Source: Candidatus Krumholzibacteriota bacterium
GTDB taxonomy: Bacteria > Krumholzibacteriota > Krumholzibacteriia > Krumholzibacteriales > Krumholzibacteriaceae
DNA: 51,435 bases
Direction: 5' to 3'
Assembly (NCBI GenBank): GCA_016926065.1
Contig: JAFGPI010000053.1
Coordinates: 1-51,435, forward strand
Position numbers and translations under genes: made by a program. This document shows, piece by piece, positions 35,096 to 40,232 of the stretch. Every line of letters starts with the position of its first letter. Position 1 is the first letter of the stretch. A model generated the notes under the pieces. It ran no database searches and had not been told where the DNA came from. It saw only the letters and a list, made by a program, of their open reading frames with translations.

Positions 35096-36835
35096 TCAAA
35101 AATTCTCGATCAACGATATATGGATAAGAGTACTTTCCAGATCTATCCTCTCTCCCACTCCAAAACTCAGCTCCACTATCCCCAATTGCGAGACCGACCG
35201 CAGGCCGAAGCCCAATCCATTCCGGAAGGTCCACCCTTCTCCGTCGCGGTACCACCCCCCGATATCGTCGAACAGAAAGAGCCTGCTTTCCTCCCCCAAA
35301 CGGTACTCCAGATTGATCCAGTTGACTCGCTCGCCCCGGAACTGGTTTTCCCGGTAACCGCGCAGAGATCTCGCCCCTCCCAGGGGATACATCTCGGAGA
35401 GGGGAACATCCCCGCTGGAAAATACCGCCTCGGATACCAATCTGCCGTGAAAGGCTTGGTTCTTCCAGGTATTTATTTTCAGGGCGCCCTCCAGGCGGTA
35501 AAGCATCTGGCCTTCGTTATCCTCACTGCCATCGGAGAAGGAATTTCTCTTGTGCGCTCCATCCAGGTGGAGCTGAAATCTCAGGGCCGAGCCGGAATCC
35601 TTGCTGATACCCAGGCGGTACCGCTGCCTGAAGCTTTTTCTCAAGGTGCTGGATTCGCCCGGAATATTCCGGTCACCGGCCATCCCTGCCAGCAGGGAAA
35701 ATTTCGGACCCAACGGCAGGCGGATATAGGCTCCGGCGGAAATCATATCGTAGAGTGTGTCGTGCACCACCTGCTGAAGCTCCACCTCCAGCTTCAGGGG
35801 GGAGGCGAAGAGAAAAGGCTCGGAGAAAAACAGCTCCGCCCGGGAATATTTCTGGCCGTCGTTCAACCAGTTGAAACGCGCGTTCCTGCCCGACCCGGCG
35901 ATGTTCCGCAATTCCAGTTCCAGGGAACCGTTCATTTGGTAATCTCCGTTATCCTTTTTGGAGAATCCAAACGCCCCCTGAAAACTATGGGGCCGTTTTC
36001 TTTCCTTTACCGTCATCACCACTTCCACTCCTCCTCCAGGACTTCTTACTATTTCGGGCTCCTCCACGCTGGCGAACAACCCGGAGGCGATCAGGTAATC
36101 CCGAGCCAGCAGCAATTTCTTTTCCCGGAAGGTTTCCCCCCTCTTCAGGCGCGAGATGCGCCGGGCGAAAGTCGAGTCGGTCTTGCTCAATCCCTCGAAT
36201 AGGATCCCCGCTAGTACCGCTTTCTCCCCCGGATAGGTGGAGAGGGATAATTCCACCGTATGGGAATCCGCCTGGAAGGTAAATCCGGTCAACCACACCT
36301 GCGCGTAAGGATAACCGGAATTGATATAGAAATCGAGCAAGCCGGCCATCGATTCGGACAGCTTGCGCGGATCAAACCGGTCTCCTTCCCGCAGGCTGAT
36401 ATATCCCGCCTCCTTGCCCCCGTCGCCGATTCTCTCCCCCCCGATCGAAATCTTTCCGATCCGGGCGCGCTCTCCCTCGAACAGGCCGATCCGGATATCC
36501 ACGGAACCATTTGTGACGCCGGTATCGACGACAGCTTCCACCGACAGCCAGCCTTGAGAGAAATAGAGGGAATCGATCCGGCCCAATTCCCGTTGCAGGA
36601 GCGAATCCGAATAGAACGCGCCGGAGCGCAGATAGCTGCCCTCTTCCAGTTCGTCGGCGCCAAACAGGCGGGCCCCGGTCCACCGTACCCGGGCGATTTT
36701 AGGGCGGGGAGCGGAATCGGCGCCGGGTGCGAAGCCGTCGCCGGAGGCCGCCTTTTCCCACCCCAGAATAATAATAAGAACCAGGGGCAATACCCATCCT
36801 CTAGAAATACGCGCGGCTTTCCATCTTGAGGGCAT
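35096..36835 (-). CDS. Omp85-family outer-membrane protein with about 3 POTRA domains (BamA/TamA-like)
   Basis: 579 aa with a signal peptide and POTRA-like repeats (IARVRWTGARLF..., IGKISIGGE..., LAGILFEGLSKT...). The barrel carries the GGARSLRGY motif and the terminal beta-signal ...ISLIENF. Confidence 0.85.
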   Translation of the reverse strand: MPSRWKAARISRGWVLPLVLIIILGWEKAASGDGFAPGADSAPRPKIARVRWTGARLFGADELEEGSYLRSGAFYSDSLLQRELGRIDSLYFSQGWLSVEAVVDTGVTNGSVDIRIGLFEGERARIGKISIGGERIGDGGKEAGYISLREGDRFDPRKLSESMAGLLDFYINSGYPYAQVWLTGFTFQADSHTVELSLSTYPGEKAVLAGILFEGLSKTDSTFARRISRLKRGETFREKKLLLARDYLIASGLFASVEEPEIVRSPGGGVEVVMTVKERKRPHSFQGAFGFSKKDNGDYQMNGSLELELRNIAGSGRNARFNWLNDGQKYSRAELFFSEPFLFASPLKLEVELQQVVHDTLYDMISAGAYIRLPLGPKFSLLAGMAGDRNIPGESSTLRKSFRQRYRLGISKDSGSALRFQLHLDGAHKRNSFSDGSEDNEGQMLYRLEGALKINTWKNQAFHGRLVSEAVFSSGDVPLSEMYPLGGARSLRGYRENQFRGERVNWINLEYRLGEESRLFLFDDIGGWYRDGEGWTFRNGLGFGLRSVSQLGIVELSFGVGERIDLESTLIHISLIENF

Positions 36836-39800: not shown

Positions 39801-40232
39801 CGCGGCCGGGGCAGGGGCCGGAAACGGCTGGCCTCCCGGAAAACGCGCCGCGAAGACCGGAGTGAAGGAGAAGGGATAGCTGATCCAAGAGACCGACAGC
39901 TTCTCCCCTCCTTCTCCCGGCTCTACCAAAAGCAGGGTGCCGTTAAGGTAATTGATCCGGTAATCCACCTCCCGCTGCAGCGGGCGCCCATCCAGAAAGA
40001 CGGAATCGCTGGCGGAGGAAATAAAAACATTTTGCAGATCGAGTTGCCGCTGTCCGGGGAGGAGGATGAATATTTTAGCGCGGCGGTAGAGTTCCCGCAC
40101 CGGAGCCCGGCCACGTACCGTAGCGGAGGGATTTGCCTTGGCCCGGGCCGTTCCCTGGGGAGTAAGCATGCCGGCGTAAATCGCCACAACCAAAATCGCC
40201 ATTACTCGCACAGTAACTCGCCGCATCTTCAT
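36801..40232 (-). CDS. 1143-aa predicted outer-membrane beta-barrel protein, function unknown (possible SprA-family relative)
   Basis: Signal peptide ending ARA/KA. An internal repeat occurs twice, [26 protein letters not shown] and [28 protein letters not shown]. The long R/Y/S/E-rich alternating region is typical of large barrels, and the protein ends in the beta-signal ...ESRAYF. Confidence 0.6.
   Translation of the reverse strand: [1143 protein letters not shown]

Follow-up and report, generated by a model that had tools for sequence, protein, structure and literature searches.

The window analysed here, which is the whole stretch of 51,435 nucleotides, carries a block of genes in which a large outer-membrane barrel gene lies together with genes for a T9SS sortase and its shuttle protein. 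The genes of the block are the following.

47506..51363, minus strand: PorU, the T9SS sortase (NF033707, 516 bits; cutoff 420)
46382..47374, minus strand: PorV-family outer-membrane shuttle protein (NF033709, 203 bits; cutoff 90; also Pfam PorV)
43076..46357, minus strand: protein with an M6-like metalloprotease fold and, at its C-terminus, a type A T9SS sorting domain (NF052323, 190 bits, below the cutoff of 600; TIGR04183, 29 bits, cutoff 23)
41199..43060, minus strand: a pair of DUF5683-like paralogues (283 and 332 aa), lying between the M6-like and NHL genes
40229..41164, minus strand: NHL-repeat six-blade beta-propeller with a signal peptide (Pfam NHL, E 1e-20)
36801..40232, minus strand: gene of a 1143-aa outer-membrane protein, a predicted compact SprA-like giant barrel (ORF, homologues, AF2 model)
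35096..36835, minus strand: Omp85-family protein of 579 aa with POTRA domains (POTRA 4e-21, three stretches; Omp85 domain)

The initial annotation placed the barrel gene in a porU/porV block, and the PorU and PorV scores listed above bear this out. All of the ca. 35 Krumholzibacteriota/Latescibacterota loci share the gene order porU-porV-(M6 cargo)-DUF5683x2-NHL-barrel-Omp85, at 29-60% identity. The M6-like protein with its sorting domain is likely a T9SS cargo. The pair of DUF5683-like genes is conserved in the block; matches to DUF5683 itself are weak, and hhalign between the two paralogues (A3 versus A4) gave 99.6% and an E value of 1e-23. In a search of PDB sequences, the NHL protein matched NHL propellers (E 3e-28). 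None of the chains in the SprA complexes resembled it in sequence, and the idea that it is a homologue of SprA's Plug was rejected on this ground. The Omp85-family protein is matched by the BamA and TamA models, in both cases below cutoff.

Translational coupling of the barrel gene had been proposed on both of its sides. Upstream, the NHL stop codon TGA overlaps the barrel ATG by 4 nt (ATGA), in agreement with the proposal, and a 4-nt overlap is also present in Calditrichota. Downstream, the ATG of the Omp85 ORF lies 35 nt inside the 3' end of the barrel gene, an overlap that recurs in 19 of 24 related loci, and an ORF read from this ATG begins with a good signal peptide. The conservation of the overlapping ATG alone is, however, no proof of its use, because the codon is forced by the conserved C-terminal His codon of the barrel gene. 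The NHL gene is found directly upstream of the barrel gene in four lineages (Krumholzibacteriota/Latescibacterota, LCP-89, Rhodothermia, represented by Longibacter, and Calditrichota), while an Omp85 gene downstream is conserved in Krumholzibacteriota/Latescibacterota and LCP-89.

The barrel ORF begins with ATG and encodes a product of 1143 aa. The signal peptide and the terminal SRAYF first described for this protein can both be read in the ORF at 36801-40232 on the minus strand. In the AF2 model, the signal peptide forms a helix (aa 3-21) followed by a low-confidence stretch. The C-terminus reads ...ESRAYF, with A1140 and F1142 invariant among 42 homologues. A set of 373 close homologues of ca. 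1130 aa was collected, every one of them named 'hypothetical' and lacking Pfam domains; the family is unannotated, with no Pfam or NCBIfam model covering it. Within the protein, the following features were delimited.

40140..40232, minus strand: signal peptide, aa 1-~31 (basic n-region, hydrophobic core, TARA-K in the sequence)
39873..40061, minus strand: module copy 1, aa 58-120, a small N-terminal beta domain (self-BLAST, alignment A2)
39374..39758, minus strand: first strands of the barrel, aa 159-286, with homology to the beginning of SprA's own barrel, the SprA_N core (hhalign)
39570..39626, minus strand: family-specific near-invariant loop LTDD(D/N)..LD, aa 203-221 (invariant or near-invariant columns)
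39147..39347, minus strand: module copy 2, aa 296-362, inserted between barrel strands (TIGR04189, hhalign, alignment A2)
38718..39038, minus strand: insert 3, aa 399-505, one helix and a small beta domain between strands (DSSP of the model)
36807..38717, minus strand: main run of ca. 29 long antiparallel barrel strands, aa 506-1142 (DSSP, pLDDT mostly >90)

The initial annotation described two modules ca. 250 residues apart. Two copies are indeed present, but their spacing is 238 residues, VFLDGR occurring at aa 78 and aa 316. Self-BLAST aligned aa 69-106 with aa 307-344 (42% identity over 38 aa, E 5e-5), and both copies are conserved throughout the family and align over ca. 65 columns. Copy 1 is placed in the periplasm by our reading of the topology; copy 2 is preceded by an invariant G. 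motif. A fragment-by-fragment NCBIfam scan of the protein revealed that both modules match the same region, 594-654, of the SprA model TIGR04189: copy 1 matches model positions 594-639, and the best stretch in the whole protein, aa 304-374, corresponds to copy 2 and to model positions 599-667. When a profile restricted to the module was run against PDB sequences, F. johnsoniae SprA was the top match (E 3.9e-6), with two copies at residues 430-467 and 700-736, i.e., 270 aa apart in SprA versus 238 aa here. The pattern common to the two proteins is V.VxGxxLxxGxDYxIDYxxGxV.F. In hhalign, copy 1 aligned with SprA 689-738 (score 46.0) and copy 2 with SprA 701-749 (score 32.5), against a maximum of 24.4 for the null, which consisted of 12 reversed or shuffled controls. 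The module also matches a phage tail-tube model, GTA distal-tail/DUF2460 models, Spa2 and PAAR proteins, and Pfam DUF2460, a phage distal-tail family, is found at the module in 10 of the 42 family members.

The segment between the modules, initially described as ending in ...LGDFQTGL, is present in the protein, and family-wide conservation is highest within it (P207, P210, G212, N213, T214 and E215). Here, similarity to SprA extends outside the module: hhalign of target residues 157-293 with SprA 133-278 gave P 2.3e-4 (the SprA side of the core of this alignment is NQRISMSLMGKVGTRLNVNA), and a local match of residues 173-201 with SprA 165-193 scored 32.8, above every null. The near-invariant loop, with pLDDT <50 at aa 205-220 of the AF2 model, has no counterpart in SprA. 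Used as a scanning pattern, it matched at least 599 stretches in species genomes. The most conserved features of the family are this LTDD(D/N) loop and a second invariant motif, which likewise lacks a SprA counterpart.

Over the protein as a whole, the likeness to SprA that had been suggested from the letters alone was found to be local. TIGR04189 matched the target with 39.9 bits (E 7.9e-11), a local match that does not reach the cutoff of 200 bits, and matched 33 of the 42 family members, also locally (best E 6.8e-12). Pfam SprA_N (PF14349), which is carried by all canonical SprA fragments retrieved, had no match at E <= 1 in the target or in any of the 42 members. SprA was missed when PDB sequences were searched with the single sequence or with the full-length family profile; only the module-restricted profile found it. 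SprA matches in the NCBIfam fragment scan were limited to the two modules, and the weak match of the barrel model TIGR03016 at the C-terminus is generic. By NCBIfam fragments and hhalign, about 70% of the protein (ca. 800 residues) has no detectable similarity to SprA. The score of 22.6 for the C-terminal strands is within the null range, the SprA alignment being shallow (Neff 2.6, Flavobacteriia only), and HHsuite probabilities for the SprA alignments are low (22-44%). A 75-aa query of SprA fragments retrieved short fragments, and a stitched 892-aa query retrieved partial SprA proteins of at most 1,559 aa. Since all retrieved SprA proteins were partial, a composite SprA sequence was assembled from two overlapping ones. 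On the sequence level, we conclude that the link of the barrel protein to SprA is real but partial: the module and the segment after module copy 1 carry the suggested likeness, and the remaining ca. 800 residues show none that is detectable.

The AF2 model of the barrel protein (pLDDT 85, pTM 0.75) contains ca. 38 long strands by DSSP (count 36-40) between aa 159 and 1141. It predicts one very large beta-barrel with a small N-terminal domain, formed by module copy 1, and two inserts, namely module copy 2 and aa 399-505. All top Foldseek matches of the model are outer-membrane barrels, among which SprA ranks 1, 2 and 4 (E 2e-11 to 2e-9), but the TM-score to SprA is only 0.25, and TbpA, MtrB, SlpA and LptD are nearly equal. 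An isolated sub-model of module copy 2 and insert 3 had a pLDDT of 77, with the insert 3 part above 90; Foldseek of this cap-region model gave no significant neighbour, and SprA was absent. The protein was initially taken as half the size of SprA, at ca. 2400 aa for the latter. The length comparison is correct (1143 versus 2403 aa, the latter from the PDB entry), but judging from the model, the protein is probably not 'half-size' in the sense of half a barrel, with ca. 38 strands versus 36 in SprA.

Clustering at 50% identity divides the family, whose members are ca. 1,100-1,240 aa long, into 4,891 clusters, and no fewer than 584 species genomes carry it. Its members come from Krumholzibacteriota, Latescibacterota, Ignavibacteria, Calditrichota, LCP-89, Chloroherpetonaceae and Rhodothermia; the named sources are all FCB lineages, and this range so far coincides with that of T9SS-type sorting domains. 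Cultured carriers include Longibacter salinarum, and relatives of Ignavibacterium appear among MAGs. In Ignavibacteria/Chloroherpetonaceae, the barrel gene is single-copy and lies amid housekeeping genes (ogt, pcrA, NUDIX, pfkB, recO, ppk), with no porU/porV, NHL or Omp85 neighbours at these loci; in Ignavibacteria, T9SS sorting-domain proteins are often encoded nearby. The Longibacter and Calditrichota loci are not linked to the operon of porU, porV and the sorting-domain protein. A shared operon is in itself no proof of a shared function. No ORFs longer than 1,500 aa were found within 10 kb of family members, other than PorU and one sorting-domain giant, and the SprA HMM, run against the ORFs of loci L001-L084 out of L001-L090, detected family members only. 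A literature search on Krumholzibacteriota T9SS, on SprA in non-Bacteroidia phyla and on short or SprA-like proteins returned nothing relevant.

We regard the family, its predicted fold class, its local homology to SprA and its conserved gene order as established. Our tentative preference, held at somewhat less than even confidence, is that the protein is a distant, compact relative of SprA, a giant barrel of ca. 38 strands that would act in this lineage as a T9SS-linked channel together with PorV and PorU. Since its gene shares one operon with those of the T9SS sortase and shuttle, the barrel may be a stripped-down SprA pore, with a putative translocon function. The likeness to SprA would be superficial if the module were just a widespread small beta motif and the resemblance of the barrels generic, the proteins being unrelated. 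The matches of the module to phage tail-tube, GTA distal-tail/DUF2460, Spa2 and PAAR proteins, Foldseek scores to TonB-dependent receptors that are near those to SprA, and the low HHsuite probabilities are consistent with this. We nevertheless consider it highly improbable, for SprA came out best with NCBIfam, with PDB sequences and with Foldseek, three comparisons that are independent of one another, the module is present twice at similar spacing in both proteins, the first barrel strands, a non-module region, align above all 12 null controls, and the genomic link to T9SS does not depend on sequence similarity.

It appears unlikely, though deserving of serious weight, that the protein is related to SprA but functions differently, as a component with a housekeeping role in the envelope of non-Bacteroidia FCB bacteria, coexisting with canonical SprA. 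It might, e.g., export or anchor another surface polymer or protein class, or serve envelope integrity, and the porU/porV adjacency in Krumholzibacteriota/Latescibacterota would then be a lineage-specific arrangement. The single-copy gene amid housekeeping genes in Ignavibacteria/Chloroherpetonaceae, the absence of SprA counterparts for the most conserved motifs, cross-phylum partners that are NHL and Omp85 rather than PorU/PorV, and the presence of the family in Rhodothermia all point this way. Against this, the operon with porU, porV and sorting-domain cargo is conserved over 29-60% identity, the sole detectable sequence relative is the T9SS translocon, and members have so far been seen only in the FCB group, which is also the range of T9SS-type sorting domains. 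At the other extreme, the protein would be the sole translocon of a minimal T9SS, a SprA equivalent and perhaps an ancestral one, with the 2,400-aa SprA a Bacteroidia-type elaboration that is lacking here; we consider this doubtful. Rhodothermia, in which the family occurs, are reported to have a canonical T9SS including sprA; if so, 'the' SprA of these bacteria is not simply this family. Furthermore, the longest SprA from the protein database is 1,559 aa, and the database therefore cannot speak to the absence of canonical SprA. A strand number near that of SprA without its inserts, N-terminal strands and a repeated module in common with it, and an operon shared with porU/porV argue for a minimal system. 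A survey with SprA profiles also found complete T9SS to be absent outside Bacteroidetes (PMC4793230), yet sorting-domain proteins are abundant in these lineages. That the ca. 1,150-aa family is a real and possibly ancestral sorting-domain translocon of non-Bacteroidia FCB phyla such as Krumholzibacteriota, Latescibacterota, Ignavibacteria and Calditrichota, and that from it SprA arose as a later, decorated derivative, has in our estimate a low probability.

If the barrel is indeed a compact SprA relative that serves T9SS, it would first be exported by Sec, and the adjacent, dedicated Omp85/POTRA protein would then aid its insertion into the outer membrane, where it would form a wide channel. 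The translationally coupled NHL propeller, which is presumably periplasmic, may dock at or inside the periplasmic mouth of the barrel and serve there as plug or adaptor. Together with PorV as shuttle and PorU as sortase, both from the same operon, the channel would in this lineage bring proteins with C-terminal sorting domains to the cell surface. The channel function, the cargo and the parts played by the NHL and Omp85 proteins are all inferred.

SprA is the largest single-chain membrane barrel known, and its gating and the release of folded cargo are still being worked out. A version of half the mass could reveal which parts of SprA are essential, because the barrel and the repeated module are kept and the cap is dropped. 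A translocon of this kind, if real, would combine a cap-less barrel and a pore as wide as that of SprA with an NHL propeller as gate and its own Omp85 as assembler. The family is a candidate for a missing or additional outer-membrane component in FCB phyla rich in T9SS-type sorting domains. Should its function turn out to be another one, the family remains very large and unmodelled, with thousands of clusters, and the NHL propeller and the dedicated Omp85 are clear partners for it.

Among known systems, Deinococcus SlpA of the S-layer deinoxanthin-binding complex (30 strands, ca. 1,170 aa) is a very large barrel of similar length, with Foldseek TM-scores of ca. 0.23-0.26 that equal those of SprA. 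However, the target lacks an SLH domain, a coiled-coil stalk and sequence similarity to it, and phyla and gene context differ. In the TamA-TamB system, an Omp85 protein with three POTRA domains has a partner of ca. 1,260 aa; here, an Omp85 protein of ca. 580 aa with three POTRA stretches adjoins an all-beta protein of ca. 1,150 aa, in reversed gene order. TamB has an inner-membrane anchor and DUF490, whereas the target begins with a cleavable signal peptide and ends in an aromatic barrel signal. No TamB/AsmA-like family in Pfam or NCBIfam matched the target, and its structural neighbours are closed barrels, not AsmA/TamB-like grooves. A TamB-like partner of Omp85 was rejected on the fold and the protein termini; a TpsA-type exoprotein was rejected as well, the strands being long barrel strands and not a beta-helix. 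LptD-LptE shares with the target a large outer-membrane barrel, an N-terminal periplasmic beta domain and a co-encoded possible lumen partner, and LptD is among the Foldseek matches. Nevertheless, the target has ca. 12 more strands than LptD-LptE (26 strands, protein plug), an NHL protein instead of LptE, and a T9SS rather than an LPS-transport context; OstA/LptD domains of Pfam or NCBIfam had no match in the target or in family members.

SprA/Sov (TIGR04189; PF14349; PDB 6H3I, 6H3J and 8GL6) differs from the target in length (2403 versus 1143 aa), the target lacking the large extracellular cap and most inserts (ca. 1,200 residues). The copy of the module ahead of the barrel is an arrangement absent from SprA, the conserved partners are an NHL propeller and Omp85 versus PPI, Plug, SprE and SkpA, and the canonical synteny ruvA-sprA-gcvH is absent around the target gene. 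On the other hand, both proteins are single-chain giant barrels (36 versus ca. 38 predicted strands), each has two detectable copies of the ca. 65-aa module 'GS..V.v.Gr.L..G.DY.vdY..G.v.i', and their first barrel strands are homologous. In this lineage, the gene of the target is moreover associated, through its operon, with those of PorV, PorU and a likely sorting-domain cargo.

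The ORF at 36801-40232 (- strand) encodes a 1143-aa product (the target) with a plausible signal peptide, as judged by sequence, and a C-terminus reading ...ESRAYF, whose last Ala and Phe do not vary among 42 homologues. The ORF, the signal peptide, and the terminal SRAYF are thus as described in the initial annotation. The two module copies it reported were also recovered: the VFLDGR motif occurs at residues 78 and 316, a spacing of 238, and self-comparison aligned residues 69-106 with 307-344 (42% identity, E 5e-5). Module copies from diverse family members could be aligned over ca. 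65 columns. We conclude that the module repeat is old and conserved. Some Ignavibacteriaceae homologues (loci L053, L063, L065, L069-L071, L077, L079, L081, L083, and L084) matched the query from residue 162 onward only, and in these the N-terminal domain formed by module 1 may be missing or highly diverged.

Close homologues of the target numbered 373, were ca. 1,130 aa long, all annotated as "hypothetical", and came mostly from Candidatus Krumholzibacteriota MAGs. A profile of 42 family members (A1) was run against 1.8 billion representative proteins and matched 4,891 clusters at E <= 1e-3 and 2,382 at E <= 1e-30. Nearly all of the best 150 clusters were 1,080-1,240 aa long and matched over their entire length, whereas about a dozen shorter ones (582-1,000 aa) covered part of the profile only. 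A relative is encoded in at least 584 species genomes. Named members and species-genome matches came from Krumholzibacteriota, Latescibacterota, Ignavibacteria/Ignavibacteriota, candidate division LCP-89, Calditrichota, Chloroherpetonaceae, and Rhodothermia, where the cultured Longibacter salinarum is a carrier (WP_245846027.1). All sources that could be identified fall within the FCB group.

An AlphaFold2 model of the target, built on A1 (mean pLDDT 85, pTM 0.75), contained the following segments:

aa 49-117: module 1, a small beta domain
aa 121-153: disordered linker
aa 159 to the C-terminus: long antiparallel strands
about aa 287-360: module 2, interrupting the strand run
aa 399-505: helix-plus-beta insert (insert 3), interrupting the strand run

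A few longer loops also break the strand run. For the count, residues 267-286 make up a single kinked strand, 352-360 are assigned to module 2 as its final strand, and tight two-residue turns are taken as periplasmic. Under this reading the predicted model, counted without coordinates, has 38 strands (range 36-40), and its topology would place module 1 in the periplasm and module 2 and insert 3 outside the cell. A Foldseek search of the PDB returned outer-membrane barrels only, with SprA complexes at ranks 1, 2, and 4 (E 2e-11 to 2e-9) at a low TM-score of 0.25, and TbpA, MtrB, SlpA, and LptD close behind. When module 2 and insert 3 were modelled on their own, Foldseek found no structural neighbour. 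Modelling with a strand count, proposed in the initial annotation as a check, therefore supports a predicted giant barrel of ca. 38 strands with SprA as the top match, but does not specifically prove kinship with SprA.

Another proposed check, a scan with SprA-family models, went against membership: NCBIfam TIGR04189 (SprA/Sov) matched the target at E 7.9e-11 with 39.9 bits, against a cutoff of 200, and a Pfam scan of the target found no domain. The target thus fails all formal SprA membership thresholds. TIGR04189 was matched by 33 of the 42 family members. When fragments of the family consensus were scanned, both module copies fell on a single stretch of the SprA model (594-654 of 2319); fragments outside the two modules gave no match to that model. 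Against solved structures, the full-length family profile did not find SprA, and the top match of a module-only profile was F. johnsoniae SprA (6H3I/6H3J, 2403 aa; E 3.9e-6), at residues 430-467 and 700-736. SprA, too, therefore has at least two copies of the module, with a spacing of 270 residues as against 238 in the target. The module profile also touched Spa2 and PAAR proteins, and family members matched phage tail models at the module, which indicates that the module alone is a common small fold.

Canonical SprA sequences, fetched via SprA fragments, were assembled into a 2,389-aa composite and a 49-sequence alignment. Comparison by hhalign gave these local matches:

target 58-107 with SprA 689-738, score 46.0
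target 173-201 with SprA 165-193, score 32.8
target 308-358 with SprA 701-749, score 32.5
target 71-118 with SprA 430-477, score 26.2

The score of 12 reversed or block-shuffled controls never exceeded 24.4. With the N-terminal region alone, target residues 157-293 aligned with SprA 133-278 (P 2.3e-4); here the SprA sequence NQRISMSLMGKVGTRLNVNA lies opposite a 20-residue stretch of the target singled out in the initial annotation, and further along LGDF...LRG...LG...KGR of the target faces VGNV...LFG...FG...QKSQ of SprA. Profile-profile comparison revealed no SprA counterpart of the family's invariant loop, and the C-terminal ca. 800 residues gave nothing above the null. The proposed resemblance to SprA therefore stands for the module and for the segment between its copies. 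Judged from these alignments, the target is a genuine but very distant SprA relative, the barrel start and the module being common to both.

Canonical sprA lies between ruvA and gcvH in two Flavobacteriia-type contigs (8924-16157 in L087, and L088), where frameshifts, probably from long-read errors, break it up into numerous small ORFs. In the protein database, all 120 SprA matches listed were partial (at most 1,559 aa), with no full-length protein (ca. 2,400 aa) among them, which suggests that very long proteins are missing or not retrievable there and limits any argument from that database for an absence of SprA.

The stop codon of the upstream NHL gene overlaps the target start as ATGA, in agreement with the translational coupling initially proposed. 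The downstream Omp85 ORF (35096-36835) begins 35 nt inside the target 3' end (overlap 36801-36835), as in 19 of 24 related loci, where its N-terminus is conserved as M.SRWKAAL. For the coupling proposed at this end, the ATG is forced by a conserved His codon of the target in the other frame, and its conservation is therefore weak evidence alone. Conservation of the Omp85 start is at least partly a by-product of the target C-terminus, VH[DA]LK.ESRAYF, read in another frame, and an annotated homologue in locus L002 starts 14 nt past the barrel-gene stop instead.

PorU, a PorV-family protein, and a T9SS sorting-domain protein are encoded farther upstream on the same strand, so the target does share a block with porU/porV, as had been noted. 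Every Krumholzibacteriota/Latescibacterota locus long enough to judge has the gene order porU-porV-(M6-like cargo)-two DUF5683-like genes-NHL-barrel-Omp85, across barrel-protein identities of 29-60%. The DUF5683-like genes (41199-42050 and 42062-43060, - strand; 283 and 332 aa) are paralogues with an S..LPGLG(E/Q)..G motif, a terminal Phe, and weak DUF5683 similarity; in all these loci the pair is flanked by the porV/M6 genes on one side and the NHL gene on the other, and it may represent further parts of the same machine. The M6-like gene (43076-46357, - strand) encodes a 1093-aa protein of metalloprotease fold that bears a type A T9SS sorting domain and scores 190 bits, below the cutoff of 600, against NCBIfam "T9SS-dependent M6-like inactivated metalloprotease"; most loci have the gene, and in several (e.g., L016, L023, L026, L003, and L031) it is missing or undetected. 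Just downstream of the Omp85 gene, 31975-34353 (- strand) encodes a 792-aa T9SS sorting-domain protein, preceded by a 176-aa ORF (34393-34923, - strand) whose only family match, Pfam DUF2673, is unconvincing and below cutoff (E 0.002).

The NHL gene, encoding an ordinary six-blade propeller with a signal peptide, also directly precedes the barrel gene in LCP-89, Longibacter, and Calditrichota, again with a 4-nt overlap in the last. Omp85 follows the barrel gene in LCP-89 and lies ca. 2.7 kb upstream on the opposite strand in Longibacter. In Ignavibacteria and Chloroherpetonaceae the barrel gene stands alone among housekeeping genes, often with a sorting-domain protein just upstream in Ignavibacteria. 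The partner conserved across phyla is thus NHL; Omp85 adjoins the barrel gene in fewer lineages, and the PorU/PorV link is strong but lineage-specific.

Elsewhere in the window, 24425-25984 (- strand) encodes a 519-aa TPR protein with weak matches to SgmX and the T9SS lipoprotein PorW/SprE (E 1.8e-4), which could be generic TPR similarity; L002 and L003 likewise have a TPR gene after the amidohydrolase (hutI-like) gene. Genes for a type IV pilus occupy 4823-21253 (- strand):

4823-6868, - strand: PilQ secretin
8486-9574, - strand: PilM
14042-17187, - strand: sigma-54 response regulator and histidine kinase, among the pilus genes
18438-19529, - strand: PilT
19571-21253, - strand: PilB

We tentatively favor a SprA-like channel that acts together with the T9SS. 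Canonical T9SS genes are reported from Rhodothermia, which carry the target family as well; this argues for coexistence, at least there, and against the target being the sole, minimal translocon. The latter is improbable in our view. In a published survey, no lineage outside Bacteroidetes was found to have a complete T9SS (PMC4793230), which leaves room for replacement. A SprA-related barrel with another envelope function is somewhat more plausible, if still rather unlikely, while a merely superficial resemblance to SprA would be very surprising. Thus, the initial observation is confirmed and its SprA-type interpretation partly supported. We conclude that the target belongs to a very large, previously undescribed family whose members are compact giant barrels related to SprA and have defined partners; its function is only proposed here, and it is of real interest for the type IX secretion and outer-membrane protein biogenesis fields.

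If the target is a SprA-like channel, it would be exported by Sec and then inserted with the aid of the co-encoded Omp85/POTRA protein. A client of 38 strands could well require an insertase of its own. In the source organism it would cooperate with PorV and PorU; in F. johnsoniae, PorV carries cargo out of SprA (PMC10994853). At 1143 aa versus 2403 aa, the target has no SprA cap, although the barrel start and the repeated module are common to both proteins. A pore of about the SprA circumference without this cap would need closing, and the translationally coupled periplasmic NHL propeller would be the obvious candidate plug or adaptor, comparable to Plug in SprA or to LptE in LptD.
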